Below the pieces are notes generated by a model that made no database searches, was not told where the DNA came from, and saw only the letters and a program-made list of their open reading frames with translations. Positions 8,481 to 42,756 of a DNA stretch of 57,230 nucleotides are shown in pieces. Position 1 is the stretch's first letter; every line of letters starts with the position of its first letter. Origin of the DNA: Candidatus Nanohalarchaeota archaeon (lineage in GTDB: Archaea > EX4484-52 > B79-G9); the NCBI GenBank assembly GCA_030634545.1, contig DAOWAN010000002.1:1-57230 (forward strand). The letters are read 5' to 3'. A program made the translations under genes and the position numbers.

Positions 8481-8762
8481 TTGTTCTCAACTCCTTATTA
8501 ACGAGCTTATTTATGCTCATTATTTTATAATCCAAATTGTTTTAACTTTGTAAGTAATTCTTTACAAAATTTACAATGACCTACTCCACGTTCTTCCATA
8601 ATCTGAATTATATGCCATCTTTCTGTTTTATTTAGTTTCATCTAAATCAGCTCCTTTGTCTTCACCAAAAATTTATTTCTTTTAAAATAATATAAATAAT
8701 CATTATCCACATAATTGAAGCTAAAATAAACCCCTGTGTAAAATCTATCCAATCTCGTTCCA

Positions 8763-9005
8763 TTAAATCAGCTCATTTCTTAATGATTTTAATTTCTGTT
8801 TATTTGTTATCATATCTATATTAACAAAATGTTTTGATATTATTTTATTATTCCAAAGTTTTCTTGGTGGATATACTTCCAATAATTCTATATGTTTATT
8901 TCCTGTTACTCCATTAAACGATGTTCTCCAATAATATCCAATAACATTTTCTTTTGTTCCGTCATTAAATGTTATCTCAAATTCCCAAAGTTCTCCTTTC
9001 TTCAT
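8763..9005 (-). CDS. hypothetical protein (80 aa)
   Basis: ATG ORF preceded by AGGTGATATGA-ATG (strong SD). Confidence 0.6.
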   Translation of the reverse strand: MKKGELWEFEITFNDGTKENVIGYYWRTSFNGVTGNKHIELLEVYPPRKLWNNKIISKHFVNIDMITNKQKLKSLRNELI

Positions 9006-9017
9006 TCATATCACCTT

Positions 9018-9119
9018 TCAATATTCTATTTGTGGACTTGGACAATGACACTCTAAACATCTACAACAATACTTGCAAACTTCACAATCTTTTCCACAAC
9101 CTTCACAATGTCCTTTCAT
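9018..9119 (-). CDS. Cys-rich mini-protein (33 aa, 10 Cys; not in the ORF track)
   Basis: Hand-translated as MKGHCEGCGKDCEVCKYCCRCLECHCPSPQIEY. It starts 2 nt after the upstream stop. Confidence 0.4.
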   Translation of the reverse strand: MKGHCEGCGKDCEVCKYCCRCLECHCPSPQIEY

Positions 9120-9121
9120 TT

Positions 9122-10318
9122 TCAATAAGCGTCTTCAAAGCTCTTTAGCCACCAGTCTGTCAGCAGATACTTGTCTTCTGTTGTCAAAGCATTGACCATG
9201 TCTGGATATTTTAACAGGTCTTTCCCTGTCTTGACCAGAGATTTTATCTTGGACAGCAGTTCCCTGCTCTTCTTCAGACGATTCTCTGGCATAGCACCAG
9301 ATATGTCCTTCATTATCTCTGTCAGTTCTGCGTTAATCTTGGTGTTCTCTGCAATGTTTTTCGCAATACTTTTCATTGTTTTCTTGTTCTCGACCAAAAC
9401 TGGGATGTGTACGTTCAAATCCCTTGCTAGTGTTCCTGAGTATTGAGTTAGTTGTGTCATGTTTATCGTTTGCATTTGTAATAGTTGAAACATATCTTTT
9501 ATTGTTAGTGGTTGCCTTAAAAAAGCGTCCCACCATTCAGGGTCATCTGTGCCGAGACTAGGCTCTGGTGACGTATCTGCCCATGCGTGGGCTTCCTTGT
9601 CAGGGTCTTTTGGCGTTATCTTTTCCCTTAATTTATTTAATTTTACAGTAATCTGGTCTCCTTTTTGTAATTTCTTTTCTACGACTTCGTCGGTAACTTC
9701 AATGTGGATGTCTTCACAATATGCGTTTTCCCTGTCAACAGTCAAGCCGTGCCTTTTGAAAAAAGCATAAGTGTATTGGATGACCAAATCTGCAATCTCT
9801 TTAATCTTTTTTGCATCTGTTATCTTTCGGCTCTTCACAAAAGCTGTTATGCTCTTATTGTTATTGTTCCTGAATTTTATCCTGAATGGTTTGTCTTTGT
9901 CAAGATACTGGGGCTTCCATCCCTTCAATCCTTTTTTTGGTTCGTAACCACCAAGTTCTGTAAAATCTATAAATCCATCAATGATTGGGAAGTAAAAATT
10001 ATACTTGTGCAAATCTGCTTGTTTTCTCTTTAATTTGAAAATCCTCTCGTCTTGGTCAACGTTATCAACATCTCTATCGTCAATTTTTTTACTTCTTAAC
10101 TTTATCAAGCCTTTTTCTGTAATCTGCCATGTTCCGTATCCAAGCTTTTTGATTAAACTTTCTTCTTTAAGCTGTCGTGCATAATAATTGAGTTTCTGTT
10201 TGCTGATATTGTGTTTTTTAGCTATATTATTTAATGTTTGTTTGTAGTTAAGTTTTAACTCTAATAATATAGTAAAGTAAAAATTATTTTTATTGTATTT
10301 TATCGTCAATAACCCCAC
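9122..10318 (-). CDS. wHTH-domain protein (398 aa); candidate regulator or replication initiator
   Basis: N-terminal LNNIAKKHNISKQKLNYYARQLKEESLIKKLGYGTWQITEKG is MarR/ArsR-like wHTH. The C-terminal two-thirds is unassigned. The start may be the TTG after the AGGTGG SD. Confidence 0.7.
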   Translation of the reverse strand: MGLLTIKYNKNNFYFTILLELKLNYKQTLNNIAKKHNISKQKLNYYARQLKEESLIKKLGYGTWQITEKGLIKLRSKKIDDRDVDNVDQDERIFKLKRKQADLHKYNFYFPIIDGFIDFTELGGYEPKKGLKGWKPQYLDKDKPFRIKFRNNNNKSITAFVKSRKITDAKKIKEIADLVIQYTYAFFKRHGLTVDRENAYCEDIHIEVTDEVVEKKLQKGDQITVKLNKLREKITPKDPDKEAHAWADTSPEPSLGTDDPEWWDAFLRQPLTIKDMFQLLQMQTINMTQLTQYSGTLARDLNVHIPVLVENKKTMKSIAKNIAENTKINAELTEIMKDISGAMPENRLKKSRELLSKIKSLVKTGKDLLKYPDMVNALTTEDKYLLTDWWLKSFEDAY

Positions 10319-11254: not shown

Positions 11255-12142
11255 TTACTCTGTTTTTTCAAAAAAACATATCACAGTTTTGTTATCATAA
11301 TAAATATCCTTCATCAAACTTTGCCTATCATCATAGACAGCAATAACTCGTTCATTGATGAAAAAACCTGATGTCCTCTGGTATATCGCCTTCTTCATTA
11401 TGTATCCATAACTTGATAAATAATTTAAGAAACCATCCATAGTGATGCCAAACTTTTTCAATGCTTTCGGATGTATTTCAATAAACAATTTTCTTGGTGC
11501 ATATCTGCCTTTCAATAGTTTCTTCGCACCCTGCAATATATGATATTCATATCCTTCCGTGTCCATACGCAGATAGTCAACCTTCTCTTTTATTACATCA
11601 TCCAACTTAATAGTATCAACCTCTATCTCCTCAACATAATTTTCTTGTCTAACAAAACTTCCTGCATTACAATGTTCAGTTATGTAGAATGTTGATTTTC
11701 CTTTACTATCTGAGATTGCCTTGTTGTATAGTTTAACTCTATGTTGGACTTTATTCACCACTAAATTCTTTTCCAGAACCTCGAAATTGTCTGGATTAGG
11801 TTCAAATGCTATTACTTTACTATTTTTGCAGTTGATTAGTTCCATGATTGCGTAATAACCAAGATTAGCACCAACCTCCAAAAAAGTCATGCCGTCTTCC
11901 ATATCACTTAAAAAATATTCTGTTGCTAAAGTTTCCCTTTTGCCACGCAATAATAACTGTCTTGACAACCCTAAATCCTTTTTCATCACATACATCTTGT
12001 AGTTGTTTACAGGAATTAATAATGAATCTCCGTTAAACTTATCCATCATTGTCTTGTATCTTCTTTTTGCTTTGATTAAATCAAAAGGATTGTATAAATA
12101 ACCATACCTAATATTTCTGGAAATCAGCTTGACTTTTTTCAT
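11255..12142 (-). CDS. FkbM-family SAM-dependent methyltransferase
   Basis: FLEVGANLGYYAI (SAM motif I), AFEPNPDNFEVLEKNL and VDYLRMDTEGYEYHILQGAKKLL match the FkbM-family signature (DvGAN.G / EP.p..f..L / lKiDvEG.E..vL.G). Confidence 0.8.
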   Translation of the reverse strand: MKKVKLISRNIRYGYLYNPFDLIKAKRRYKTMMDKFNGDSLLIPVNNYKMYVMKKDLGLSRQLLLRGKRETLATEYFLSDMEDGMTFLEVGANLGYYAIMELINCKNSKVIAFEPNPDNFEVLEKNLVVNKVQHRVKLYNKAISDSKGKSTFYITEHCNAGSFVRQENYVEEIEVDTIKLDDVIKEKVDYLRMDTEGYEYHILQGAKKLLKGRYAPRKLFIEIHPKALKKFGITMDGFLNYLSSYGYIMKKAIYQRTSGFFINERVIAVYDDRQSLMKDIYYDNKTVICFFEKTE

Positions 12143-20220: not shown

Positions 20221-20562
20221 TTATTCACCTTTTTCAATTTCCAGAAAATTATTTAATTCAGTCACTTGACCAATATCATATTCTGGAAGATTTGGAGTTT
20301 CATAATGTTCTTCTATCCTGATGACAAAACTGCCTTCTATGAATTCAACAACACCTTTAAACCACTTTCCTTTCATGTATGTTGCGATTATTTTGTCTCC
20401 TTCATAGATTTCTTCGCCATTTTTGTATTTTAGACCTGCGTACTGTGTTATTTTTGCTTCATGTTGACAATCAATTAATCTTAGAATATTTCTTCTATTT
20501 TTAAAATCTAAACGTACTATTTCTCCATCGTCAAACAAAGCTTTATATTTGATTTCTCTCAT
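20221..20562 (-). CDS. YopX-like phage protein
   Basis: MREIKYKA...QYAGLKYKNGEEIYEGDKI matches the YopX pattern MreIKFRaW...qfTGLkDknGkeIYEGDiv. Confidence 0.75.
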   Translation of the reverse strand: MREIKYKALFDDGEIVRLDFKNRRNILRLIDCQHEAKITQYAGLKYKNGEEIYEGDKIIATYMKGKWFKGVVEFIEGSFVIRIEEHYETPNLPEYDIGQVTELNNFLEIEKGE

Positions 20563-21644
20563 TATTCTTCACCCTCTTCTTGTTCTTTATTTATCATGTC
20601 AAGTGCTTTCTGCAAAGCTTCATTCAGTCCTGTCTTTTCCCTGAACTCATCCAGAATGTCACGTATCTCCTGCCTTTTCTCTTCAAACCTGTCTTCTGCT
20701 TCTTCACCAACATAATTGACAATGGCTTGCCTGACAAATTCTCTTGACTTTTTTGGAATGACTATCAATGCGTTTGCTTCACATTTCCTCACACCATATT
20801 TGCTGAGATATTCTTGTGCATAGGGAAGATTGAAATTTGGATGCAGTTTGCCTGATTTGGTTCTTCCTTGCACTATCTTTCCATTTTGCAATTCTGCAAT
20901 AGCCCCTTTGCTTCCTGTAATCAGATTGTCAATCCATGTTAATTTATTTTCTTCAATGAAATCATAGTCAAGACCGAACCTTTTGATTATCAAGTCTTCT
21001 GGATTGTAGCCTGTCTCACCATCTGCCCATTCAATGAACATCAAATCTCTTATGTTTTTCCTTAAAAAATCTGAAATCCTTAACCCATCTGGGTCATGGT
21101 CTCCGCAGTATAATAATACGCATTTAAGACCTTTTTGTTCAGCTTCCTTGAACCTTCTTGAATAGATTGCTCTCTGGTGCATCGAAGACCAGCCCTTTGA
21201 TGTTGCGATTGGTATATGGAATTTCTGGCATACTGGTCTGAACAATGTCTTCAGGTCAACTTTCTCGACAATCATCTGGATATAATACTCTTCACCATCC
21301 CACCAGTCAGGCGTGTACCATTCTTCACAATCCAGAGAAGCTTGAACATACTCTTTCATGTACTGCACTGGTGTTTGTTCAGTTGGCACTTCAACACCTT
21401 CAAATGCCCTGCCGACATCTTCTTCTGTGAAATCTATTGGCAGGATGCCTTTCTTCCTGCATTTGTTCATTAGATTTTCGACCTTATCAAAATCTGCCTT
21501 TGTGATAAGATTTGCCGTTTCTAATTGATATGCCCAGCCCCTCGCTGATACTTTAAAGCCGATTTGTCTTGATATTTTCTTTATCTCTACTGCGAATTTC
21601 CGAAGGTTCTCTTCAGTTGCTTTTTTCGTTAAGTCATATTCCAT
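20562..21644 (-). CDS. Topo VIA/Spo11-like protein (putative 5Y-CAP plus Toprim), 360 aa
   Basis: MIVEKVDLKTLF (Toprim Glu), SKGWSS and YCGDHDPDGLRI (DxDxxG) match the Topo VI-A pattern vEK...kG.p...D.DP.G..I. Glu-to-DxD spacing is 55 aa. SARGWAYQL lies 88 aa upstream of the Glu as a candidate catalytic-Tyr segment. Start taken at the ATG after GAGGTAAAA. Confidence 0.6.
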   Translation of the reverse strand: MEYDLTKKATEENLRKFAVEIKKISRQIGFKVSARGWAYQLETANLITKADFDKVENLMNKCRKKGILPIDFTEEDVGRAFEGVEVPTEQTPVQYMKEYVQASLDCEEWYTPDWWDGEEYYIQMIVEKVDLKTLFRPVCQKFHIPIATSKGWSSMHQRAIYSRRFKEAEQKGLKCVLLYCGDHDPDGLRISDFLRKNIRDLMFIEWADGETGYNPEDLIIKRFGLDYDFIEENKLTWIDNLITGSKGAIAELQNGKIVQGRTKSGKLHPNFNLPYAQEYLSKYGVRKCEANALIVIPKKSREFVRQAIVNYVGEEAEDRFEEKRQEIRDILDEFREKTGLNEALQKALDMINKEQEEGEE

Positions 21645-21646
21645 TT

Positions 21647-21892
21647 TTACCTCAGTTTTTTTATGTCTTTTAGACCCATTGCACTTGCAACTCTCCAAAC
21701 AGTGTAATTTCTATGTGTTCTTTTGTCTGCTATTTTTATGATTACTTTATTAAAATCTCTATATTCTTTATTAACAGATTTTTCATAATTTTCTTCTGCT
21801 TTTTTAATTCTGGCATTAAAGAATTTAACAACGATTTCTAAGTCTTTCTCCAATATCTTTCTTTTCTTAGCACTGATATTTGCTTTTAACAT
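21647..21892 (-). CDS. hypothetical basic protein (81 aa)
   Basis: ATG ORF. Possible C-terminal HTH (YTVWRVASAMGLKDIKKL). Confidence 0.55.
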   Translation of the reverse strand: MLKANISAKKRKILEKDLEIVVKFFNARIKKAEENYEKSVNKEYRDFNKVIIKIADKRTHRNYTVWRVASAMGLKDIKKLR

Positions 21893-21895
21893 TTT

Positions 21896-22135
21896 CTAGT
21901 TCACCTTTTCCAGTTCTGCTATCTTAACATCTCTTTTATTGAGGGCATCAACTATCTTGTAAATCTCATGTAATTTAGTTCCTTTATGTAATGACATGCC
22001 TTCTCCTCTTCCATTTGTCAAATAACCTATATTAGCGTCATAATACCATTGCTGACCTATTGGTTTTTTTCTGTATCTCCAACCTGTTTCTTGGACTATT
22101 TCTTTAAACGGTTTAAATTCAATAGATTTTGTCAT
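21896..22135 (-). CDS. hypothetical protein (79 aa)
   Basis: ATG ORF with a 4-nt overlap onto the upstream gene. Confidence 0.55.
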   Translation of the reverse strand: MTKSIEFKPFKEIVQETGWRYRKKPIGQQWYYDANIGYLTNGRGEGMSLHKGTKLHEIYKIVDALNKRDVKIAELEKVN

Positions 22136-22344
22136 TTTATCTCCGTGTCTCTTACCACAGTTTCAGGCATTAAGTCCATGTGACCTGTTCCGTTGTCAAC
22201 TCGGCATTTCATTAATCTATGTCCATCACCAAACGGTGCTTTGTCTCCAATCCAAACTATATATAATTTAGTTCCTTTTGGAATGCCGACCCCTTTAATA
22301 TCTTTACAATCTTCAGTTAATTCAATAGTTTTTAGTATTTTCAT
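22132..22344 (-). CDS. hypothetical protein (70 aa)
   Basis: ATG ORF preceded by AGGTGATATGA-ATG. Confidence 0.55.
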   Translation of the reverse strand: MKILKTIELTEDCKDIKGVGIPKGTKLYIVWIGDKAPFGDGHRLMKCRVDNGTGHMDLMPETVVRDTEIK

Positions 22345-22363
22345 TCATATCACCTTTTGTTCT

Positions 22364-22561
22364 TCATAATTTTGTTTCTTCAAATTTCCTATTTTCTTTT
22401 TTTACCCTATCATGAGTGTATTTGACACAGTACCGCACCATGTCCGTGTCAGTGTTAATCCCTGTGATATTTTTTAACTCTTCCAGCCTATTGAGAAGCT
22501 TTTCATCCCTTCTTCTCGCATTCTTGACTGAAAGTGCAATCTTTTTAGTTGGCGTTAACAT
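22364..22561 (-). CDS. possible ribbon-helix-helix protein (65 aa)
   Basis: KIALSV (beta strand), then LLNRLEELK and DMVRYCVKY (helices), which resembles the CopG/RHH layout. Weak call. Confidence 0.4.
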   Translation of the reverse strand: MLTPTKKIALSVKNARRRDEKLLNRLEELKNITGINTDTDMVRYCVKYTHDRVKKENRKFEETKL

Positions 22562-22832
22562 TTTCTAGTTCACCTTTTTCAAGTTTTTTTAGACAGTTTT
22601 TGCAGTCAACTATTTTCTTGACTTCTTCCAGTGTAAAATCTTTTTTTCTGACTTCTGTTTTATTAAGCCTGTTGATTATGTAACCGCAGACAGTCATCTT
22701 TCCTTTTGCTAAGTCACCACCACATAAAGTATATTTATTAAACTTAGTCTCGCTGATAGCGTGTGTCTTCACGATGCCTGCACCGTAAAACACGTCCTCT
22801 AATTTATCGACTACTTTCATTTTTTTAACCAT
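22545..22832 (-). CDS. hypothetical Cys-containing protein (95 aa)
   Basis: ATG ORF (MVKKMKVVDK...) with 4 Cys, including CKNC. Confidence 0.55.
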   Translation of the reverse strand: MVKKMKVVDKLEDVFYGAGIVKTHAISETKFNKYTLCGGDLAKGKMTVCGYIINRLNKTEVRKKDFTLEEVKKIVDCKNCLKKLEKGELENVNAN

Positions 22833-23094
22833 TCCTTATTCAACATAGATGCTATCCAGTTTAGGAAATTTTCACATGATTTTTCCTTGCCAAAAATTTC
22901 TCTATACTCTTCTGTCAATTTTTGAAATCTAATTATATTATCTCTTGCTGTTGTCATTCATATCACCTGTTTGATTAATATTATTATGATAACTAAACAC
23001 TCGCAGAAAATATCTGTCTTATTCCATTGATTCAATGACAGTCTCAACGAGTGCCTAAAATCACTTAAAAACTGTTGCGGATTGTGAAATTTAA

Positions 23095-23316
23095 TCATTT
23101 CCATTCTATTACTTCACCATTAACTGTCATTCCTTCTATTGTTTCATTTAATTCATCAATAGCATTTGCAATACCATCTACTTGACTCTCTAAATCATTG
23201 TCATTCTCATAGCTTTTTGTGTTTACCCATCTGTTCCATTCTTCATCCTTCAAGTCAGCTAACCAAGTTAATATTACTTTAAGTTGTACTCGTGTTGTTT
23301 TCAATAGTTTTACCAT
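23095..23316 (-). CDS. hypothetical acidic protein (73 aa)
   Basis: Start taken at MVKLLKT after GGTGGATTAAG, 1 nt past the upstream stop. The track start at 23355 overlaps the GHKL gene. Confidence 0.5.
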   Translation of the reverse strand: MVKLLKTTRVQLKVILTWLADLKDEEWNRWVNTKSYENDNDLESQVDGIANAIDELNETIEGMTVNGEVIEWK

Positions 23317-23317
23317 C

Positions 23318-24724
23318 TTAATCCACCCCGAAGAACTCTGGCTCTTCCAGTGCAATCATGACTAATTTGCCAGCCATCTTTGTGATGCACTCATGATATG
23401 AATGCTCTGTGTGATGCCCTTTCTCATGACCTAATTCATGTAATATCAGTGATGTTGTCATTGGACAGACTGTGATGTCAAAGAAGCCCTTTAATCTGCT
23501 TACGTTGAATGTCATGACTCTGTGACCATACTGTGCCACAACCATGTTAAAACCGCCTTTAACGAACTCTACACCGATGTCTATACCCAGCAATCTCTTA
23601 GCTATCTTCTGTGCATATTTGCCGACCCTGTCCATACTCACAGTCGGTCTGACGCTTTGTGCATTTGTGAAATTAGTCCCGAACCTGTCGCTTGTGCTTT
23701 CTATCGCACCGAACCTCTTGATGTTTTCCCATTCAGCAGAACCCATCTCTGAGCCATGAACAACATTGTAGCCGTGACTGATTGCTTCATCTATTGAGTT
23801 TGGGTCAAAATTGTTTGCCACTGCGACCTTATCTCCGAATCTTTTCTTTACGATACTTTCAACAGCTTCCTTCTCAATCCTGTCATCACTCATCGCTGAC
23901 CTAACCCATAAGTCAGAACTGTTCTCTTTCTCAATATCTTCATAAGTGTTGTTCAGAACCTCTGCATATAAATCCTGTAAGAAGCTAGGCAGTACAGTTT
24001 CCCTATCTAAGCTCAAAGGTATCTTCTGCTGTACGTCAATGTCATATCCACATTCGATGTCTGTTATCGGGATGCCCATCTCAAAGATATACTTAGTGTC
24101 TCTCCGTGTCTTGTGAAGATGAACTTTTGTCATCCTTTTTGTCCTTGACATCGTGCCTTCTTTCTCTATCTCAGTCTGTAAGGTTGTCTTGAATATTTTG
24201 TCAGGCTCTACATAATCAACTTTGACACCGTTCACATAATAATTGATGCCTTTTGGGACTAGGTACATCATAGCATCTTCCAGCATCTCACCAGCATCCT
24301 GTTTGTTGGCTCTTAATTTTATTGTTATCATTGAGCCAGAATCCCTTTTAAAGCGTCTGTTGTGCCTTCCTTTGCTGTCAAATACAATAGTGCCTGTGGT
24401 TGTCTCAACCTTTGCTTCGGTGCAGACAGCGAACACCAGCTTCTCTCCTATGTTGAACCGTCCACGCTTCTCTGAATCTCTTCGTTTATATGTGTCTGCA
24501 AACAGTGTGTAAGCATGTGTCAAATTCCTGAAACCTATCGGGCTGTCATCTTCGATGCTCAAAGTCATCATGCCTTTTGACTGCACCATGTTGACTCTGC
24601 ATTGTGTGATAGGCTCATCCAAAGCGTTCTGTACCAGTTCTCTTAATATGAACTTTTTACCTTTCTTGCCTATCAGATTCTTCAGACCTTCTCGGTCAAC
24701 TGCAAACCAGTTTTTGTCTTTCAT
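23318..24724 (-). CDS. GHKL-superfamily ATPase with C-terminal HExxH (zincin-like) motif, 468 aa
   Basis: ELVQNALDE (N-box, aa 29-37), IEDDSPIG (G1-like) and RGRFNIGEK (G2 box) follow the Bergerat-fold order seen in Hsp90, MutL, Topo VIB and MORC. HELGH is at aa 429-433 (nt 23426-23440), followed by GHH..H..HE. Confidence 0.75.
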   Translation of the reverse strand: MKDKNWFAVDREGLKNLIGKKGKKFILRELVQNALDEPITQCRVNMVQSKGMMTLSIEDDSPIGFRNLTHAYTLFADTYKRRDSEKRGRFNIGEKLVFAVCTEAKVETTTGTIVFDSKGRHNRRFKRDSGSMITIKLRANKQDAGEMLEDAMMYLVPKGINYYVNGVKVDYVEPDKIFKTTLQTEIEKEGTMSRTKRMTKVHLHKTRRDTKYIFEMGIPITDIECGYDIDVQQKIPLSLDRETVLPSFLQDLYAEVLNNTYEDIEKENSSDLWVRSAMSDDRIEKEAVESIVKKRFGDKVAVANNFDPNSIDEAISHGYNVVHGSEMGSAEWENIKRFGAIESTSDRFGTNFTNAQSVRPTVSMDRVGKYAQKIAKRLLGIDIGVEFVKGGFNMVVAQYGHRVMTFNVSRLKGFFDITVCPMTTSLILHELGHEKGHHTEHSYHECITKMAGKLVMIALEEPEFFGVD

Positions 24725-24787
24725 TTTTTCACCTTTACTTCACTTTTCTTGTCTTTAAGACATTTCATATTTATTAGTATGACATAT

Positions 24788-24807
24788 CATATATATAAAC
24801 CTTTCGT
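24788..24807 (-). promoter_or_regulatory. BRE/TATA promoter for the GHKL-led gene run
   Basis: The coding strand reads CGAAAGGTTTATATATATG (a BRE-like CGAAA next to TTTATATA), about 65 nt upstream of the ATG at 24724. That ATG has its own GGTGA SD. Confidence 0.5.
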
Positions 24808-24920
24808 TTTTTAACCTATTTAAGAGTAAATCAACTAAGAATTAGCTACTTTTAGTTACATTTTCATATAATGAATATCTTATATAGAAATAAGAAAAAG
24901 AAATAAATTATATGTGCCTG

Positions 24921-26912
24921 TTATTTTTTCTTTTTCTTGAAATTCTTCTTGTATTTTACCAATATCAACAGTAAGAAAAATATGATTGCAACTGCACCCA
25001 CAATTATCATCGTGTTCTTGTTTCTTTCCTTGCTGATTATATCTTCCAATTCCTTTATGAGTCTCTGTTGCTCTTCATTGTTCAGTCTCAGCTTCTCTAC
25101 CAGTTCCGCCTGCTCTTCAGAATTAAGCTCAAGCTCAGATATTATTATTACCTGTTCATCAAGATTAAGTTGCATGTTGATTATAATCTCTGCCTGCTCT
25201 TCTGTTGTCAGTTCCAGATTAGATATAATCTCTGCCTGCTCTCCAGTGCTTAGCTGAAGCTCTGTTATCAGCCTTGCCTGTTCTTCTATGTTCAACTGAA
25301 GCTCTGTTATCAGCCTTGCCTGTTCTTCTGTTGACAGTTCCATCGCCAATATGATTAATGCCTGCTCTTCAACCTTCCCAGTTATCTCCTGTATGAATAT
25401 GACATCTTCTGCAATGGTGTTCTGCAATGCAGATATGATTTCACCCTGTTCTGCAAAGCTCAGTTCCATCTCTGCAATCAATCTTGCCTGCTCTTCTGTC
25501 TGAATCTCTAACAGACCTATAAGTATAGCCTTTTCCAGAAGATTTATGTTCAGGTTATCTATTATTATTGCCTGTTCCTGCACATTCAGGCTCAACTGCT
25601 GTATCATGATTGCCTGTTCCTGTACTGAAAGCTCTAATTGGGCAATGATGATAGCTTTTTCATCCACTGTCAACTGAAGCTGGTCAATTATATCCGTCTG
25701 TTCCAATATTGTCCTGTCAAGCTCTGCTATCAAAAGACCTTTCTCTTCAATAGTCATCTCAAATTGTGAAATAAGCTCTGTCATCTGGTTGACTGTAATT
25801 TCAAGCTGGTTAATCAATAAGGCTTTTTCCTCTATTGTCAATTTCAGCCTGTCTATAATCTCTGCCTGTTCCTGTATCGTCAAATCAAGATGTGATATTA
25901 ACCTTGCCTGCTCATCAAGAGTAAGCTGTAATTCTTCAAGCAACCTTATCTTGTCTTCCCTTAAATCTATCAGATTATCAATCAATATCAGAATCTCGTC
26001 AATCTCTAAATTAGCAGAATTTATGATGTCAATTAGATTAGACCTGCACTCGGAAAAAGTTGAATATCCATAAGCAAGACATATATCAGGAACTTGTTTT
26101 TGAACACATACACATTGGTCTTGGTCAACAACATAATCACCAGAGCATGTCAAAGGACAGATTTTAGTTATGCTCTCCACACAATGCGGTTGGGCTGGGT
26201 CATTCCAATCAGTGCCTTTGCAGAAATTCTGTTGCCAGATGCCGTCATAGACCTGACCACGAACCCAGAGACAGTCGCTTCCATCATAATATTTGTTATT
26301 ACTGCCGTAAGGTATATCTAAAAATAAATTATCATATTGTATGTTCAATATCTTTGTTGTGAACGGTCTGTCTCCACTCCAGCCTTCAATCTCTTCAATC
26401 TTACTCCATCTTTGCATAATATTATTGTTTTGGTCAAGCAGTTCAACATACCAAGAGCATCCATTTTCAGAATCATAATCAATGCCACCATAATCTCCAA
26501 GATAATATCTATCATACCAAGTACAATGGCTGTTGCAATAAAGAGTTTTATCACATACATCACCATACGCACAACTACTTCTATCACAATCCCTGTAACC
26601 AGCAACATAAACATCGTAAATAGGGCAGACACCTGAAATTCCAATATCTTCAATATACACACTGCATGCACCAAAATTATCAGAACTAAATTCTTTGCAT
26701 CCTTGGAAACTGTAATAATTTTCACCTGTATGAACCCTGAATTTCCATGTCTCACCTGATTGATGCGTCACAAGAATATCAAGCGGTATTCCAATCCCGA
26801 TTAAAGCTGTCTGCCTGCTTGGACTTATGAATACAGTAATTGCCAAAAGAAATAAAATAACCACTACTATTATCGTACCCCGTACTTTACTCTTTGTTTT
26901 CTTCTTTACCAT
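24921..26912 (-). CDS. membrane-anchored spike or tether candidate: Cys-rich head, about 320-aa 14-residue-repeat coiled coil, C-terminal TM (663 aa)
   Basis: MVKKKTKSKVRG plus a TM. A Cys-rich domain at aa 35-290 is paralogous to 30417-31478. About 23 repeats of LxLT.EEQA.II.. span aa 300-622. TM (MIIVGAVAIIFFLLLILV) and a KKNFKKKKK tail. Confidence 0.85.
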   Translation of the reverse strand: MVKKKTKSKVRGTIIVVVILFLLAITVFISPSRQTALIGIGIPLDILVTHQSGETWKFRVHTGENYYSFQGCKEFSSDNFGACSVYIEDIGISGVCPIYDVYVAGYRDCDRSSCAYGDVCDKTLYCNSHCTWYDRYYLGDYGGIDYDSENGCSWYVELLDQNNNIMQRWSKIEEIEGWSGDRPFTTKILNIQYDNLFLDIPYGSNNKYYDGSDCLWVRGQVYDGIWQQNFCKGTDWNDPAQPHCVESITKICPLTCSGDYVVDQDQCVCVQKQVPDICLAYGYSTFSECRSNLIDIINSANLEIDEILILIDNLIDLREDKIRLLEELQLTLDEQARLISHLDLTIQEQAEIIDRLKLTIEEKALLINQLEITVNQMTELISQFEMTIEEKGLLIAELDRTILEQTDIIDQLQLTVDEKAIIIAQLELSVQEQAIMIQQLSLNVQEQAIIIDNLNINLLEKAILIGLLEIQTEEQARLIAEMELSFAEQGEIISALQNTIAEDVIFIQEITGKVEEQALIILAMELSTEEQARLITELQLNIEEQARLITELQLSTGEQAEIISNLELTTEEQAEIIINMQLNLDEQVIIISELELNSEEQAELVEKLRLNNEEQQRLIKELEDIISKERNKNTMIIVGAVAIIFFLLLILVKYKKNFKKKKK
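25047..26015. repeat. about 23 tandem 42-bp (14-codon) coding repeats
   Basis: In-frame periodicity of 42 bp. Adjacent units can be near-identical: gctctgttatcagccttgcctgttcttct occurs at 25259 and again at 25301. Confidence 0.85.
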
Positions 26913-30416: not shown

Positions 30417-31478
30417 TCACCTTTTCTTCTTTGTTTTCCTGTTCCTGTTGAACAAGATGCTGAATGTGATAAGCATTAATATAAATAATATTATTATGAT
30501 GATGGTGTTCGTCAGTTTAAATTCAAAAGGCTCTTCTGGTTCTTGTTCTGGTGGCTCTTCCTCTGGTGGCTCTTCCTCAAGTGTGCATTCGTCATTCACA
30601 CAGAAAAAGCCTTCTGAACAGTCTGAATCTGAAATACATTCTGGCTGTGGTTCAACACAAGTGCATGAGTCATAATCAAGCTCTTTGTCTTCTGGACATC
30701 CTAATTTACATAATAAAGTCACTGGCTCTATACAGTCTGGCTCATCAAGACCGTCATTACCAAGACAGACATTATATCTGTATCTGTCATCTTCAACCTG
30801 AAATTTCACACTTATACATGATTTTATACTAGAGCCGTCTGCACGTCTCTGGACAATTCCGTAATGGTCAGATATAGTTTTTATAGAAGTCCCTTCATAC
30901 TTGAAATCAATGGCTTCCCTGTAATATTTGTCTTTTTCCCAGTCTTCACCATATTTATCCTGTGCAGATAATTCCTTTATCAGGTTGCCTTCCTTGTCTT
31001 TAACTAAAATATACCATGCACAATTATCATAACTGTCATAGATTGCACCGCCGTATGTACCTAAATCATAGCCGTCAATCCAACTGCAATGACTTTCACA
31101 ATAATCTCCTCTGCTTGTTGAAGTTCTTTCATCACAATTCTCACCGTACATGCAGTTGCTTCTGCTTGCGATACTGTCACAGTCACGCCAGCCTTCACCA
31201 TAGCATTGTTCAATAGTGCAGTCAAATTCATAGTCAATCACTTCACCCCAGACACGGCACGCACTTTTTCCAGAACATCCAGTCGGCTTGCAACCAGTCT
31301 TCTTCCAATACTTGTCAAAAGCATTGAATGTTATCTTCAAATCTTCTGTCTCAAGAACGAAGTCAGTTCCCATGCCGATTAGTGCAGTCTGACGTACAAA
31401 AAATATTGCCATAAGAAAAATTATCAGAATGGTTGAAACTATCAAAATCTTTGTCTTTCTCTTAATTTTATCTGCCAT
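30417..31478 (-). CDS. membrane-anchored Cys-rich ectodomain protein, paralog of the head of 24921-26912 (353 aa)
   Basis: MADKIKRKTK plus a TM, then VRQTALIGMG. Shared blocks with 24921-26912: GWRDCD/GYRDCD, CMYGENCDE/CAYGDVCDK, SHCSWIDGYDLGTYGGAIYDSYDNCAWYILV/SHCTWYDRYYLGDYGGIDYDSENGCSWYVEL. Acidic EEPPEEEPPEQEPEEP linker, then a C-terminal TM and NRNRKTKKKR. Confidence 0.85.
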   Translation of the reverse strand: MADKIKRKTKILIVSTILIIFLMAIFFVRQTALIGMGTDFVLETEDLKITFNAFDKYWKKTGCKPTGCSGKSACRVWGEVIDYEFDCTIEQCYGEGWRDCDSIASRSNCMYGENCDERTSTSRGDYCESHCSWIDGYDLGTYGGAIYDSYDNCAWYILVKDKEGNLIKELSAQDKYGEDWEKDKYYREAIDFKYEGTSIKTISDHYGIVQRRADGSSIKSCISVKFQVEDDRYRYNVCLGNDGLDEPDCIEPVTLLCKLGCPEDKELDYDSCTCVEPQPECISDSDCSEGFFCVNDECTLEEEPPEEEPPEQEPEEPFEFKLTNTIIIIILFILMLITFSILFNRNRKTKKKR

Positions 31479-31502
31479 CTTCAAAAAAAAGATTCTCTGC
31501 CT

Positions 31503-36323: not shown

Positions 36324-37290
36324 CTGATTTCTTTTTAAAGAATCTCTTTCTTATATATGTTCTTTTTTTGATTATGATTACCAATATAAGTAAAATTAAG
36401 ATTATCAGGAACACCAGAACATAATAGATGACTGGCTTTAATCTGCCATCTTCATCCCTTAAACTATCAAAGAAATCTTTAAAAAATGCAACAATGAATA
36501 AGTCTCCTGAAGGCGTTATCAATATGTTATAAAAATCTGTGCTGTCTGTTATCTTCACAGGCTTTGTCTGGTTTATCAAGATACTGCCTTTCCTTGCTGA
36601 AAACATGAAATCATAATTGCCTTTTTCCAGATTGTTGACATAATCCAACGGATAGATGCCTGTTGAACTTTCTTCTAATGTTAAAAAATCAACTGAAGTG
36701 TCCTTTCTCATTACCTCAAGAAAGACCAAATCCATATTTACCAAAGTATTATAGTAGTATGTCTTTACAGTCATTTCAATCGGCTCAGATAAATTATAAG
36801 CGTACCTCGTGGTCTCAATTATGAAATAATATCCCAGAATTTCCTCGCTGACTATCTCATCTGGCTCTTCAACATCTTCTGGCGGTTCATCATAATAAGT
36901 CTCGTTGATACACCAGCCAGAATTGTATTCCTCACCACCACATTCACATAACCTGACTATCTGACCTTCATCACAATCTGTTATTGTGTATGGACTACTC
37001 CCACCGCCACCAGTCGGGGGTGTGCATGCCTGACCTGTCGCTGGCATACTATCAGTTGTGCCACAGACATTAACATCAGTGCAAGTCCTGTTCTGGATAT
37101 TGCCAACACAAGTTGTCCATGAACTGCATGACCAAGATTCCGTACAGCTTGCTTCAAATATAATCATTGGCAGATATGTATCTCCGCCACCGACTATCGC
37201 TTGAAAACCCTGTACGGAACTAATCAATAATATAGAATAAAGTATTGAAAAGACAATTACAAATCCAATAAAAATTCTTTTCTTCATCAT
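36316..37290 (-). CDS. membrane-anchored protein with TSP1-like Cys/Trp motif (324 aa)
   Basis: Start MMKKRIFIGFVIVFSILYSILLISS (TGATG overlap with the upstream stop). CTESWSCSSWTTCVGNIQNRTCTDVNVCGT motif. C-terminal TM and a KKRTYIRKRFFKKK tail. Confidence 0.8.
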   Translation of the reverse strand: MMKKRIFIGFVIVFSILYSILLISSVQGFQAIVGGGDTYLPMIIFEASCTESWSCSSWTTCVGNIQNRTCTDVNVCGTTDSMPATGQACTPPTGGGGSSPYTITDCDEGQIVRLCECGGEEYNSGWCINETYYDEPPEDVEEPDEIVSEEILGYYFIIETTRYAYNLSEPIEMTVKTYYYNTLVNMDLVFLEVMRKDTSVDFLTLEESSTGIYPLDYVNNLEKGNYDFMFSARKGSILINQTKPVKITDSTDFYNILITPSGDLFIVAFFKDFFDSLRDEDGRLKPVIYYVLVFLIILILLILVIIIKKRTYIRKRFFKKKSDD

Positions 37291-39668
37291 CAACAAATGT
37301 ATAATGTTGCAGTTGCACCCGTTCCTATTAAACAACCAGATGAATTTGAACTCCACCCTACTGATGTATTCTGCTCAAATTTCACGTTTTCAACAGTTAT
37401 GTTCTTGCTGAATACAACATTTTCGTCAAATGTCTCAACACTTCCTGTTAATGCGTAAGTATCATCATCTGTTAAAATACTACAAGTCAATGTGTCTGAA
37501 ACTTCATTATCTGCCCACGGATTAGCAGTATTAACTAAGTTTTCATTAATAGTTCCGTCTGCAATGTCTGTTAATGTTGATTCTAATGGTTGAAAACTAT
37601 CATCAAGACTACAAGTATTTCCATCACAAGTAAAGTCACCAAAATCAGATGAAGCCAAATCATCAGGTTCAATCTCACCCATTGTTATTTGTTGTGTTGA
37701 TAATGTTAAATAATCTTGACCTGTCAAAGTCACTAATGCTTGGTGAGAATCATCATCTCCTGCATGTGTTGAAATAGCAGAATCAATTTCAGTTGTTGCA
37801 TCAGTGCAACTTTCAACTGCACCACTTGTATCAACACCAAGAGGATATTCCCCTGCACCACAATTTCCACCATTTGCAACTAATGATGTTGCTGTTGCTG
37901 AATTGTTTGCATTCAGATTTAAATAGCTATAAGTTTTATTTAATGAAAACACATCAGAGCTTTCTGAAATAAAAGTATTATCAGAATCATAAGTTGTGTC
38001 AGTATCTTCTAATATGGTGTCATTAACTTTTATTTGAGTGACATTAATATCTCTCATATTTAAATCCCCTATGAAATCTCTAGTTCCATATATATCCATA
38101 GCCCACGGATGGTTTGTTTGATTGTTTCTTCCTGTTGTCGCATCATGTTCTCCACCAAAATTAACCCCCACAGATTGCAATATCGCAGTATAATCTAGAT
38201 AATAATTATGTGAAGTAATTCCGCTATCATCATGTATAATTCTCATCTGAACAGTCCCACTGTTAATTGTTGTATTTATAAAAAGTTCTGGATTAAATAC
38301 TGAAGCAGATGTTGTACCAAAATCCGTTTGGTCAGTAATAATACCAAAATCTATCCATGAATTAGTAGTTATTTGATATAATTCGATGTGAACTGTATGA
38401 CCAGCACCGCCGTCATATCTTCCTCGCAAGCCGAATGTATTGAATGTAGACACGCCAGTAAAATTTATTCTTATTTCAAAACCAGGCGTACCAGAAACTT
38501 CACTAATATTTAATGTATCACCATCATTAAAATCTAATATTGAAGTTAAGTTCCCAGAATCTAAAGTGCCAGTTAAAACTTGTACTGAAGTTGCATTAAT
38601 AGTTGTTTGAACACCGCCTGATATTGCAAGAATAGTATCATTTAATTCAGTTTCATCAACACTGAAATCTTCTGCTACTAATGTTAGATATTTACTGCTT
38701 TCTGTATAAATTGTATCTGTCAAAGTGCAGAGATTACTACTTGAACCATTAAGCCTGGCACAACTCACATTTCCAGGTATTAAGTATGTGTTAAAGCTTG
38801 AATTAGTGTATGTTGTATCTGTAACTGTCTCTGTTCCAGTAACAATGCTTGTTAAATGACCAAAACCATCTAATAAGATGTCTTGGATATATGTTCTTCC
38901 AGAATTATCAGAACTTGCCTGAGCCGATGTGTCAGAATGGTTTACCTGTGTTCCAACCAAGCTTATTCCTGACCCATTAGTAGTTACTGTATCACTATCA
39001 ACAACCTCTGAATTGATTGTTACGTTGTTTCCTGAGATTGATGTGTTGATGTCATTACCGCCTATAACTCTAAAAATCTCATTGTCTAAAATATCACCAG
39101 AACCACTATCAGAACTAATATTCAAACCAAAACTGCTTGTCAAATCTGTGTAAGTACAGTTTAATGTGCTTGCTGTATTGTCCCAAGTGCATATCTTTGC
39201 GTCTGTCTTTGCACCTGTAAAATCATTAATTGTATCAAACCAGTACTCGTTCAGGACACCGCTTGCATTCATATAATTTGATTTGTTTACGTTAAGGTCA
39301 GCTTCTACCTTGCCACCTAATGTAAGAGAATCATTTGAACCAAAACTTTGTGCCACATACAATAATTTTTTCCTATCAAGTGTTGTTCCATTGATGATTA
39401 TGTGCATCCATAATGGAACGCTGAAATCAACACCAGTCAGGTTTTCCACAACTATCGGTGCGATGTTATTCGTGACATTCACACCAGTTATCAAGTCATG
39501 GTTGAATACAAATGTACCACCGCTTTCAGCAGTCACTAGACTGAAATTAACAACATAGATGCCGTCTGCTTTCGGCACTTGTGTCAACAAGATACCAACA
39601 TCATCATCTAGTGCTAAAACTAAACTTATTGTAATCAAAAACATAGTCACATAGATTATTTTTTTCAT
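37290..39668 (-). CDS. large secreted fibre or adhesin-like protein (792 aa), N-x-S/T-rich
   Basis: Signal peptide MKKIIYVTMFLITISLVLA. Thr/Ser/Asn-rich and beta-rich sequence. ANGGNCGAGEYPLGVDTSGAVESC motif. Dozens of sequons. Confidence 0.85.
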   Translation of the reverse strand: MKKIIYVTMFLITISLVLALDDDVGILLTQVPKADGIYVVNFSLVTAESGGTFVFNHDLITGVNVTNNIAPIVVENLTGVDFSVPLWMHIIINGTTLDRKKLLYVAQSFGSNDSLTLGGKVEADLNVNKSNYMNASGVLNEYWFDTINDFTGAKTDAKICTWDNTASTLNCTYTDLTSSFGLNISSDSGSGDILDNEIFRVIGGNDINTSISGNNVTINSEVVDSDTVTTNGSGISLVGTQVNHSDTSAQASSDNSGRTYIQDILLDGFGHLTSIVTGTETVTDTTYTNSSFNTYLIPGNVSCARLNGSSSNLCTLTDTIYTESSKYLTLVAEDFSVDETELNDTILAISGGVQTTINATSVQVLTGTLDSGNLTSILDFNDGDTLNISEVSGTPGFEIRINFTGVSTFNTFGLRGRYDGGAGHTVHIELYQITTNSWIDFGIITDQTDFGTTSASVFNPELFINTTINSGTVQMRIIHDDSGITSHNYYLDYTAILQSVGVNFGGEHDATTGRNNQTNHPWAMDIYGTRDFIGDLNMRDINVTQIKVNDTILEDTDTTYDSDNTFISESSDVFSLNKTYSYLNLNANNSATATSLVANGGNCGAGEYPLGVDTSGAVESCTDATTEIDSAISTHAGDDDSHQALVTLTGQDYLTLSTQQITMGEIEPDDLASSDFGDFTCDGNTCSLDDSFQPLESTLTDIADGTINENLVNTANPWADNEVSDTLTCSILTDDDTYALTGSVETFDENVVFSKNITVENVKFEQNTSVGWSSNSSGCLIGTGATATLYIC

Positions 39669-39669
39669 C

Positions 39670-42600: not shown

Positions 42601-42714
42601 ATATTCTTCATCATCAAACTTGACCCATTCATCAGGCGGTATTTCCTGAGAATAGCTTAAAGTAAGTAAAAGAAGTAATGTAATCATCAATAATAATGAT
42701 GTTTTTTTCCCCAT
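39670..42714 (-). CDS. giant secreted protein with LamG (concanavalin-A-like lectin) domain (1014 aa)
   Basis: Signal peptide MGKKTSLLLMITLLLLLTLSYS. Aa 194-415 match the Laminin_G_3 pattern (LTFDD...DLHNSYNMTITGA...DESYSYDGNDHL...DFTVNLW...GDWHMFTMIRNGT...LYIDN...LNIGK...FTGEIDEFNYFTRELNRTEISDLY). Confidence 0.85.
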   Translation of the reverse strand: MGKKTSLLLMITLLLLLTLSYSQEIPPDEWVKFDDEEYELETDDGFKLKIKSDSEFELETPDGSSFFTITSSVPIYEVGDITQTKEWGHRDSGYEYLTSDKKIIQDGNYLCIEEDKSIFGIGIAQTTIYHNCVEYPPQYINVSLEELFIDVDGIEHNTTLVNVRNITKINDYFYMITFPEEDYDPTSTGMTTGLVKYLTFDDTETVGANSEDLHNSYNMTITGATTGVGGIIDESYSYDGNDHLSRTAVGTEYDVNQGDFTVNLWYNTQEVSSDEQFFQIWNSAVPNDHIKSRWADQSGTDRILIFTRTTTGDVGYCQRKVESTTDDGDWHMFTMIRNGTLCTDLILYIDNVLQTTVLNAESGENLDIDNMNTLNIGKPNDAQWWFTGEIDEFNYFTRELNRTEISDLYNDGDGWQYPFIITQTPTPTTLLNDSQNNESIYLTWDAQDTAEKFLLHNFSINFVNTTNNYYNNTNLINNTEHCYNITAYNDTYDISESNFSNTICTYTLQNTPLPNNLPTLANLVPANNTLLTAGITLVDLNVTANDDDGGDTVEVSFVNSSNDVVICTNASISPGTTVRCNWAGLMDSVDHNWYVNVTDTKNITTSGIYNFSITNAVPTTPTSLQLCNGTEGDLNDTFTESPICLNCTGSTDVESNTITYVLQKGNESDQVLGNYVSYTASFVTTGDKTDGGYAVSKTNTEDCGQGTCTNTNSWQAGFNDSAVAKTKIEWVFNVSTLDLSSILSLNLSGGGCWAGGVTGLDCDGSDDAEFNPGTSPQFYAYVYNWDTDGWEVLACDGGTHGCIGDGYNITPGGFSGAGAGADYQKYSFYKLLGSPPDYVDESKLIKIRYNVTGDTQGGDFDVIGVYDYSSLEISYNTIYTDVGNHTEGNTYTWNITSEPDETYESMRCCAIDIDGSNTCSDYYTISTATVIDYGVGDSCDYSSGNFVIDCSEDCTVDSATDVGGNDVIISHTDSNPHTIIISSAVTNCGDVTITGNDATNRCNVIVNAQFCGGV

Positions 42715-42739
42715 CCTTAATCAGTTGAATTTGTTTTGT

Positions 42740-42756
42740 GACTTATATATTTTTCT
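42740..42756 (-). promoter_or_regulatory. internal TATA-box promoter overlapping the stop codon of 42743-46942
   Basis: The coding strand reads AGAAAAATATATAAGTC, ending 25 nt from the ATG at 42714. Confidence 0.5.

Follow-up and report, generated by a model that had tools for sequence, protein, structure and literature searches.

Two genes that recall the two halves of a type IIB DNA topoisomerase lie 1.7 kb apart on contig DAOWAN010000002.1 of a Candidatus Nanohalarchaeota archaeon (assembly GCA_030634545.1), and the question raised by this locus is whether their products work together. One gene encodes a stand-alone homologue of the type IIB A-subunit, Topo mini-A (Mini-A); the other encodes a Bergerat-fold ATPase of the GHKL class with a zincin-like C-terminal domain (GHKL-zincin). 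We analyzed positions 1 to 57,230 of the contig, hereafter referred to as the window; all coordinates are those of this 57,230-base stretch, and both open reading frames (ORFs) are read from its minus strand (Table 1). An earlier, sequence-only reading of this DNA had proposed a divergent type IIB topoisomerase-like pair on a mobile element, an interpretation that is partly supported by the data described below. We put at roughly 0.7 the probability that Mini-A and GHKL-zincin are two independent accessory genes of a divergent archaeal-type virus or integrative element and not a type IIB topoisomerase pair.

Proteins of the Mini-A family are defined by an Arg residue positioned four residues before the catalytic Tyr, a Toprim Glu residue, a DxDxxG motif and a C-terminal T2BI box of the sequence xWELDAL (Takahashi et al. 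2019, PMC7671362). The RxxxY arrangement has been described for both Mini-A and Topo VI, and the DxDxxG motif defines Mini-A as well as Topo VI and Topo VIII (PMC7671362). In the 360-amino-acid (aa) protein encoded in the window, the segments SARGWAYQL (aa 33–41, with Y39), IVEK (aa 125–128, with E127) and CGDHDPDGLRI (aa 180–190) are found at exactly the distances given in the sequence-only reading, with 88 aa between the Tyr and the Glu and 55 aa between the Glu and the Asp residue. The ORF has 2421 database homologues and is therefore a real gene; these homologues begin at the ATG at 21644 and not at an upstream TTG at 21698. Its product matches phrog_6247 ("DNA topoisomerase") over nearly its full length (E 8.9e-73), and direct sequence homology to WELDAL-bearing Mini-A proteins is seen with phmmer (E 2.6e-14 to 4e-10). 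Two alignments were used to assess the catalytic residues: A2, which combines window-type and canonical Mini-A proteins, including SWELDAL-bearing ones from the loci L032, L037, and L076, and A3, which comprises 28 window-type sequences. R35, Y39, E127, and G181 are invariant in A2, where D182, D184, and G187 are conserved to at least 90%; in A3, all seven residues are invariant. The match to phrog_6247 and these catalytic residues, the conserved Tyr among them, bear out the view that the ORF encodes a Topo VI-A/Spo11-type protein with 5Y-CAP and Toprim domains. On sequence grounds, the protein is a divergent member of the published Mini-A family. Like the described members, it is a stand-alone A-subunit homologue of a virus or mobile element that possesses the RxxxY arrangement, the Toprim Glu, the DxDxxG motif, and a C-terminal segment resembling the T2BI box, and is accompanied by no canonical B subunit.

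The window protein differs from canonical Mini-A proteins in its length (360 vs. ~300 aa), in an insertion that follows the Toprim core, and in the sequence KCEANAL that stands in place of xWELDAL. Its greater length results from the insertion of ~50 aa (about aa 233–283) and from a helical C-terminus, both of which are properties of the window-type clade. In alignment A2, KCEANAL falls column for column on the SWELDAL sequence of the canonical proteins from L032, L037, and L076; the E, A, and L residues are retained, while W is replaced by C and D by N, a variant specific to the subclade. Within the window-type clade (A3), K287, C288, E289, A290, and A292 are invariant. The closest cultured relatives (~50% identity), with which the window protein shares this divergent subclade, are encoded by the Cellulophaga phages phi38:2/phiSM and by Chryseobacterium phage MA9V-3. 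A tblastn search of INPHARED found matches to Mini-A in 81 phage records, many of them annotated as DNA topoisomerase and including NP1-like Pseudomonas phages. Our analysis thereby delineates a Mini-A subclade, marked by the KCEANAL box and inserted hairpins, that is common to Cellulophaga and Chryseobacterium phages and to many uncultured viruses. Mini-A proteins are also known from viruses of Asgard archaea (bioRxiv 10.1101/2021.07.29.453957).

In phage phi38:2 (L001, 7118–15704), phage MA9V-3 (L002, 7995–12217), and locus L099 (8618–9367), the Mini-A gene is found beside 7-deazaguanine (queuosine-type) DNA-modification genes, namely folE, queC/D/E, queF, and a tRNA-ribosyltransferase-like gene. 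GTP cyclohydrolase I is encoded near Mini-A in four of 80 IMG/VR loci. A link of Mini-A to DNA hypermodification is possible.

An AlphaFold2 (AF2) model of Mini-A that was built from alignment A3 reached a predicted local distance difference test score (pLDDT) of 84. A Foldseek search of the PDB with this model returned nothing at E<=1e-3; its sole full-length match, which also had the highest probability (0.75), was Topo VI-A (1d3y_B; template modeling (TM) scores of 0.40/0.48), with an E value of 0.11 that is not significant by itself. Pfam yielded faint matches to TP6A_N and to the JetD-type Toprim domain (DUF2399), NCBIfam yielded no match, and sequence and profile searches of the PDB with both the Mini-A and the GHKL protein found nothing relevant. 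Since the structural match is consistent with, but neither significant for nor independent of, a relationship between Mini-A and Top6A, we take this relationship from the literature. What Mini-A has in common with Topo VI and Topo VIII are the catalytic residues of the 5Y-CAP and Toprim domains and their spacing, and at this locus a Bergerat ATPase is encoded nearby.

The GHKL ORF has 1077 database homologues of near-constant length and, with more than 1000 homologues, is a real gene as well. The Bergerat motifs ELVQNALDE, DDSPIG, and GRFNIGEK, which the sequence-only reading had listed in this order, starting about 30 aa from the N-terminus, are present at aa 29–37, 59–64, and 88–95, respectively. 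In an alignment of 26 homologues with 47–59% identity to the window protein (A1), E29, N33, D36, D59, G64, G88, and G93 are invariant, and the conservation of these N, G1, and G2 residues upholds the assignment to the Bergerat ATPases. The proposed pair would call for an ATPase of the Topo VI-B type, but structure and profile searches both place the protein with Hsp90, an outcome that the sequence-only reading had itself listed as counting against its proposal. The 50 best PDB matches that Foldseek found for its AF2 model (pLDDT 86) all belong to the Hsp90 family (TRAP1, Hsc82, GRP94, Hsp90-beta, HtpG; E 2.9e-13 to 2.5e-10), with TRAP1 at the top (E 2.9e-13); Hsp90 fragments consisting of the N-terminal and middle domains aligned over ~470 columns (TM 0.40–0.43), so that both of these domains of the GHKL protein are covered. 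When the family alignment was compared by hhalign with Escherichia coli HtpG, MutL, and GyrB, a panel that did not contain Top6B, HtpG was matched with a probability of 82% over 125 columns representing the whole Bergerat domain, as against 3.9% for MutL (50 columns) and 8.1% for GyrB (43 columns).

The resemblance to Hsp90 extends beyond the ATP-binding domain. In the AF2 model, a beta-rich middle domain containing an Arg loop of the Hsp90 type comes after the GHKL domain, and helices and the zincin-like domain complete the chain. The loop (QKIPLSLDRE, aa 233–242) corresponds to DLPLNVSRE in E. coli HtpG, and R241 corresponds to the Hsp90 catalytic arginine, which is R336 in HtpG; Q233, P236, D240, and R241 are invariant in A1, K234 is conserved to at least 90%, and the loop pattern is present in 188 of 241 GHKL family ORFs. 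The protein thus shares with HtpG, TRAP1, Hsp82, and GRP94 a Bergerat N-terminal domain and a middle domain with a PL(N/S)x(S/D)RE loop, and members of the Hsp90 family are its best structural and best profile matches. However, identity amounts to only 10–14%, the protein is virus-encoded, and it measures ~470 aa as compared with 620–700 aa, with an HExxH zincin-like domain replacing the C-terminal region of Hsp90.

Domain models place the protein less firmly. For the window protein, the Pfam models HATPase_c_3 (22.6 bits), HATPase_c, and SACS (17.8 bits) scored just under their cut-offs, and among the 26 homologues they were matched in 24, 17, and 18 cases, respectively; Pfam HSP90 was not matched. 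The sacsin N-terminal domain model of NCBIfam (P_loop_sacsin) was matched at E 2.8e-6, again below the curated cut-off. Sacsin and prokaryotic sacsin-like GHKL proteins hence give the most consistent weak model matches for the N-terminal domain, but all of these lie below curated cut-offs, and no HEPN or J domain follows in the GHKL protein. Its PHROG counterpart, phrog_6077, has no assigned function. Judged by sequence and by the AF2 model, the GHKL protein is a Bergerat ATPase of the Hsp90/sacsin type and not of the Topo VI-B type; its zincin-like C-terminus, the missing match to Pfam HSP90, and the scores of HATPase_c_3 and SACS below cut-off put it outside Hsp90 proper.

These properties bear directly on a point raised by the discoverers of Mini-A, who found no B subunit near Mini-A genes and explicitly left open an undiscovered, non-canonical Mini-B (PMC7671362). 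If the GHKL protein were this subunit, it would assemble with Mini-A into an A2B2 complex and form an ATP-dependent type IIB-like topoisomerase or DNA-cleavage machine. Its intact Bergerat motifs and the middle domain with a gamma-phosphate-sensing loop would suit such a role, as would the position of both genes on one strand within a tight gene array and an enriched proximity of the two families (see below). We nevertheless regard this arrangement as highly improbable. The ATPase is Hsp90-like in structure, profile, and catalytic loop and gives no Top6B signal; its model contains no Top6B-like transducer (switch lysine, long helix towards the A subunit), a statement for which no H2TH model search was made, and its C-terminus is zincin-like instead of providing a transducer helix that reaches the A subunit. 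Top6B is bound by an N-terminal segment of 5Y-CAP that Mini-A, in turn, does not possess (PMC7671362). The genes for Top6A and Top6B are invariably found in tandem (PMC7671362), whereas one to eight ORFs separate the two genes studied here, which are not fused in any case and are rarely found together.

The C-terminal part of the GHKL protein contains a motif, HELGHxxGxHxE (aa 429–440), that had escaped attention in the earlier reading. According to the AF2 model, the C-terminal ~115 residues fold into three strands and two long helices, with HExxH lying in one of the latter. H429, E430, H433, G436, H438, and E440 are all invariant in A1, and HExxH is present in each of 235 full-length ORFs of the GHKL family; among 251 family ORFs, there were neither domain fusions nor any extension of more than 50 aa. 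Distant members carry the variant HE(L/F)(G/A)HxxxGDH..Y and give faint Pfam matches to WLM (E 0.025), SprT-like (E 0.041), and M48 (E 0.048), all of them under cut-off; the window protein matches none of the three. The likeness to proteases of the Wss1/WLM, SprT/Spartan, and ArdC types consists of the HExxH sequence and a downstream His residue that follows a Gly residue. It is a likeness in motif, no corresponding model reaches its threshold, and the spacing in the window protein is one residue shorter (HExxHxxGxH). Consequently, the C-terminal domain can be designated only as a candidate protease, an assignment that rests on the motif and the predicted secondary structure and that is weakened by the failure of every Pfam peptidase model to reach threshold.

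If Mini-A and the GHKL protein belonged together, their genes should travel together, a point that the sequence-only reading had named as a check. This is mostly not the case. Scoring the presence of the other gene within 10 kb of a seed gene, we found Mini-A in seven of 80 IMG/VR loci seeded with GHKL, which represent three unrelated lineages (L020; L037; and the related group L032/L033/L044/L074/L076), in one of 80 loci from species-representative genomes (L179), and in one of the 80 metagenome loci closest to the window GHKL protein (L254, with the gene order of the window and ~2 kb between the genes). Conversely, none of 80 IMG/VR loci seeded with window-type and canonical Mini-A contained GHKL; with a GHKL-linked canonical Mini-A as the seed, two of 80 loci did, and both of these contigs were already known from the GHKL side. 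Relatives of this Mini-A at 58–61% identity, with full flanks, are encoded without GHKL. In total, Mini-A is found near nine of 240 GHKL loci and GHKL near two of 160 Mini-A loci (158 are without it). No Mini-A is encoded alongside the closest GHKL homologues (59% and 53% identity) on their contigs, nor any GHKL on the contig with the closest Mini-A homologue (65% identity). In INPHARED, the GHKL gene is present in a single record, that of a 485-kb uncultured phage, in which no Mini-A gene occurs within 12 kb of it, as against the 81 records with Mini-A.

Where the two genes do occur together, one to eight small ORFs lie between them, their order varies, and they are never adjacent or translationally coupled. 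When the neighbors of 80 GHKL and 80 Mini-A loci were clustered, no family was present at more than seven of 80 loci. GHKL neighbors include DNA polymerase A, serine recombinase, head-morphogenesis-like, PI3/4-kinase-domain, and DUF932 proteins; those of Mini-A are heterogeneous and include DNA methyltransferases, helicases, and GTP cyclohydrolase I. Because co-occurrence is rare in both directions, gene order varies, and no neighbor is conserved, Mini-A and GHKL do not form a conserved module, and Mini-A has no need of the GHKL ATPase. Together with the Hsp90-like ATPase and its zincin-like C-terminus, the rarity of co-occurrence leaves the proposed type IIB-like A/B pair unsupported. For the one Bergerat ATPase found near Mini-A here, the question of a hidden B subunit consequently receives a mostly negative answer, since this ATPase resembles Hsp90 and contains a protease-like domain, and nearly all Mini-A genes can do without it.

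Several data do not sit easily with two wholly independent genes. In the IMG/VR set, Mini-A is the commonest recognizable neighbor family of the GHKL gene. The two genes are at most 3 kb apart in six genomic backgrounds (the window, L020, L037, the L032 group, L179, and L254), of which L020, L037, and the L032 group have nothing else in common; L254 and the window share no strong match other than the GHKL protein (52% identity). Moreover, the frequency of nine in 240 loci (about 4%) exceeds by a factor of roughly 20 the share of phage records with Mini-A (~0.16%), although this enrichment is a crude estimate because search sensitivities differ, records are redundant, and rare accessory genes pool in variable replication-module islands. 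With a frequency ~20-fold above the base rate, the proximity is unlikely to be due purely to chance. We regard it as a lead and not as a finding, yet as a concrete and cheap one for the biochemistry of Mini-A.

Three observations were made at the paired loci themselves. The Mini-A genes beside GHKL in L020 (11896–12510) and L074 (7988–8997) are split by a stop codon or frameshift and are either pseudogenes or products of assembly errors. In L032 (7232–8677), and likewise in L033 and L044, a 482-aa protein is encoded two genes downstream of GHKL-zincin; its segments REFVSNAIDR and GQFGSGNK are reminiscent of GHKL boxes, but we rejected it as a second GHKL protein (hhalign probability of 1%, no Pfam match). 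In L254, an archaeal-type contig, the gene directly upstream of GHKL-zincin (8752–9654) encodes an ArdC-like protein with a region resembling single-stranded DNA (ssDNA)-binding domains at its N-terminus and the sequence HEFAHEILH at its C-terminus, and a tyrosine recombinase gene lies directly downstream.

The recurrent proximity could reflect a loose partnership in a subset of viruses, in which the ATPase-zincin would remodel Mini-A or free it proteolytically from covalently bound 5' ends, by analogy with Wss1 and Spartan, while both proteins act independently in most other viruses. Mini-A retains the catalytic Tyr that is able to form a covalent adduct, and WLM and SprT-like proteins, to which distant GHKL family members with the HELGHxxxGDH..Y motif show their faint similarity, are families of DNA-protein-crosslink proteases. 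The gene for an ArdC-like ssDNA-binding protease adjoining GHKL in L254 fits into this picture, as does the recurrence of the enriched proximity in six backgrounds with variable gene order. We consider such a partnership doubtful: Mini-A is lacking within 10 kb at more than 90% of the GHKL loci, as GHKL is at ~99% of the Mini-A loci, the genes are never adjacent or translationally coupled, and the WLM and SprT-like matches, which are absent from the window protein, lie far under curated cut-offs. In addition, accessory genes often share variable replication-module islands without having a joint function. The stronger proposal that, in a minority of bacterial and archaeal viruses, the ATPase-zincin is a dedicated partner of Mini-A, either as a Mini-B ATPase or by removing Mini-A from covalently bound 5' ends as an ATP-driven protease, seems improbable to us. 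Were its protease version true, it would represent a viral counterpart of the processing of Spo11 and topoisomerase adducts.

The structural data also allow a role for GHKL-zincin that is unrelated to DNA topology: it might be a counter-defense or host-takeover factor, similar to GHKL proteins of the T4 rIIA type or to ArdC-type proteases, that degrades or inactivates a host protein early in infection. In a search of the viral structure library BFVD, two family-like matches came first and were followed by many RIIA proteins (E 1e-8 to 1e-6); ATPases of phage topoisomerase II were matched at ~1e-7 to 1e-6, with TM scores as low as those of the RIIA matches. Both GHKL-zincin and rIIA are GHKL ATPases of viruses in which the C-terminal part is variable, but rIIA comprises 600–900 aa without an HExxH domain, there is no relationship at the sequence level, and with TM at about 0.3 the similarity is confined to the common GHKL fold. 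The GHKL gene resides in early/accessory regions with very variable neighbors, members of its family occur widely in archaeal viruses and prophages and in those of many bacterial phyla, and host proteins have been suggested as the targets of jumbo-phage zincin peptidases (SprT-like, ArdC-like; PMC7824862). However, PADLOC gave nothing but meaninglessly weak matches for the window proteins (TmtA; JetD at E 0.005 over 26 residues), no anti-defense model was matched, and neither experiment nor context ties the family to any defense system. We therefore entertain a counter-defense function as a tentative possibility.

Under the reading that we favor, that of two independent accessory genes, both are part of the same long, co-oriented array of early/DNA-metabolism genes. 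Mini-A would cut DNA through an Mg2+-dependent 5'-phosphotyrosyl intermediate, as its invariant Arg and Tyr residues, the Glu, and the DxDxxG motif suggest, and would probably do so as a homodimer with no ATPase subunit dedicated to it; replication initiation and DNA processing are among the roles proposed in the literature. The N-terminal and middle domains of the GHKL protein, with Arg241, are predicted to bind and hydrolyze ATP; hydrolysis may drive or gate the C-terminal HExxH zinc metallopeptidase-like domain, so that GHKL-zincin would be an ATP-regulated chaperone-protease that acts on some host or viral protein. We infer these catalytic activities, oligomeric states, and substrates from family membership, motif conservation, fold similarity, and co-occurrence statistics. 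Mini-A adds a divergent member to a known family, and GHKL-zincin represents a large family with no assigned function. Our search of the literature on GHKL-zincin and on Hsp90-like proteases in phages found no description of it. With its constant architecture and more than 1000 clusters from bacterial and archaeal viruses, this Hsp90-like ATPase-zincin family merits a study of its own.

Table 1. Positions of the genes, domains, and motifs discussed in the text (window coordinates).
Feature	Position	Strand	Remarks
Serine recombinase	674–1468	+	Resolvase and Recombinase domains
FkbM-type methyltransferase	11255–12142	-	E 2e-25; phrog_8156
YopX-domain gene	20221–20562	-	Directly downstream of Mini-A; Pfam, E 7e-9
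Mini-A gene, 360 aa	20562–21644	-	Stand-alone type IIB topoisomerase A-subunit homologue; 5Y-CAP and Toprim
T2BI-box-like KCEANAL, aa 287–293	20766–20786	-	Variant of the Mini-A signature xWELDAL
Toprim DxDxxG motif	21084–21101	-	D182-H-D184-P-D-G187
Glu127 codon (IVEK)	21264–21266	-	Toprim metal-binding glutamate
Tyr39 codon (RGWAY)	21528–21530	-	Predicted catalytic tyrosine; Arg35 four residues upstream
Eight small ORFs, 46–95 aa	21647–23355	-	Tightly packed between the Mini-A and GHKL genes; from ORF list
GHKL-zincin gene, 468 aa	23318–24724	-	Hsp90/sacsin-like GHKL ATPase with zincin-like domain; family of bacterial and archaeal viruses
C-terminal zincin-like domain, about aa 351–468	23321–23674	-	AF2 secondary structure: three strands, HExxH helix, further helix
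Predicted metal site HELGHEKGHHTE, aa 429–440	23405–23440	-	H429, E430, H433, G436, H438, E440
Middle-domain catalytic loop QKIPLSLDRE, aa 233–242	23999–24028	-	R241 corresponds to Hsp90 catalytic arginine
Bergerat (GHKL) ATP-binding domain, aa 1–155	24260–24724	-	N box E29/N33/D36; G1 D59..G64; G2 G88-R-F-N-x-G93
Intergenic region upstream of GHKL gene, 197 bp	24725–24920	-	BRE/TATA-like element and ribosome-binding site, read from sequence
Two paralogous Cys-rich membrane-anchored proteins	24921–26912, 30417–31484	-	36% identity over 289 aa, E 3e-41
Three consecutive very large proteins (801, 1014, 1399 aa)	37290–46942	-	Signal/anchor segments; rich in N-x-S/T sequons

From ~1.5 to 53 kb of the window, almost every long ORF is on the minus strand. 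Between the two genes, where the sequence-only reading had counted six small ORFs, there are eight of at least 46 aa, and six of these measure at least 65 aa. Six of the eight were scanned against Pfam and PHROG and gave no credible match, so that the earlier guess of a ribbon-helix-helix protein at 22364–22561 is unverified; BLASTP found no relative of the intervening ORFs among those of loci L001–L169. The tight packing and common orientation of the Mini-A and GHKL genes make a shared operon plausible, although co-orientation is the rule over ~50 kb of minus-strand genes. A scan for promoters and terminators with a bacterial-type model gave the same result for the window as for shuffled sequence. 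Upstream of GHKL, the DNA contains an archaeal-looking B recognition element (BRE)/TATA sequence (cgaaag-gTTTATATA, 24806–24792), ~70 nt from the start codon, and a GGTGA ribosome-binding site (24733–24729), 5–9 nt from it; these putative signals suggest that the GHKL gene heads a transcription unit of its own.

The view that the DNA belongs to a mobile element or virus agrees with the serine recombinase and YopX genes in the window and with the viral contigs on which the relatives of its Mini-A gene are found. The 41-kb contig of the closest GHKL homologue (L164) carries two MCM genes, Cdc6/Orc1, RusA, and a gene for a TRASH protein, and the genome bins with the nearest GHKL homologues are labeled Woesearchaeota and Pacearchaeota (both DPANN), Bathyarchaeia, and Methanomicrobia. 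Given the MCM and Cdc6/Orc1 genes of this homologue contig, the archaeal bins, and the BRE/TATA-like upstream region, the element is probably an archaeal virus or integrative element. The contig contains no terminal repeat and no tRNA gene, and searches of PHROG and Pfam with its large proteins yielded almost no matches. The longer of the two Cys-rich paralogues continues into ~350 aa of degenerate coiled-coil repeats (L-x-IEEQA-x-LI-like units), in whose coding region the tandem-repeat program TRF detected a short 42-nt array alone (25233–25326). Among the three consecutive very large proteins, the middle one contains a LamG/concanavalin-like domain (E 3e-10), and all three may belong to the envelope of the element or serve in adhesion.

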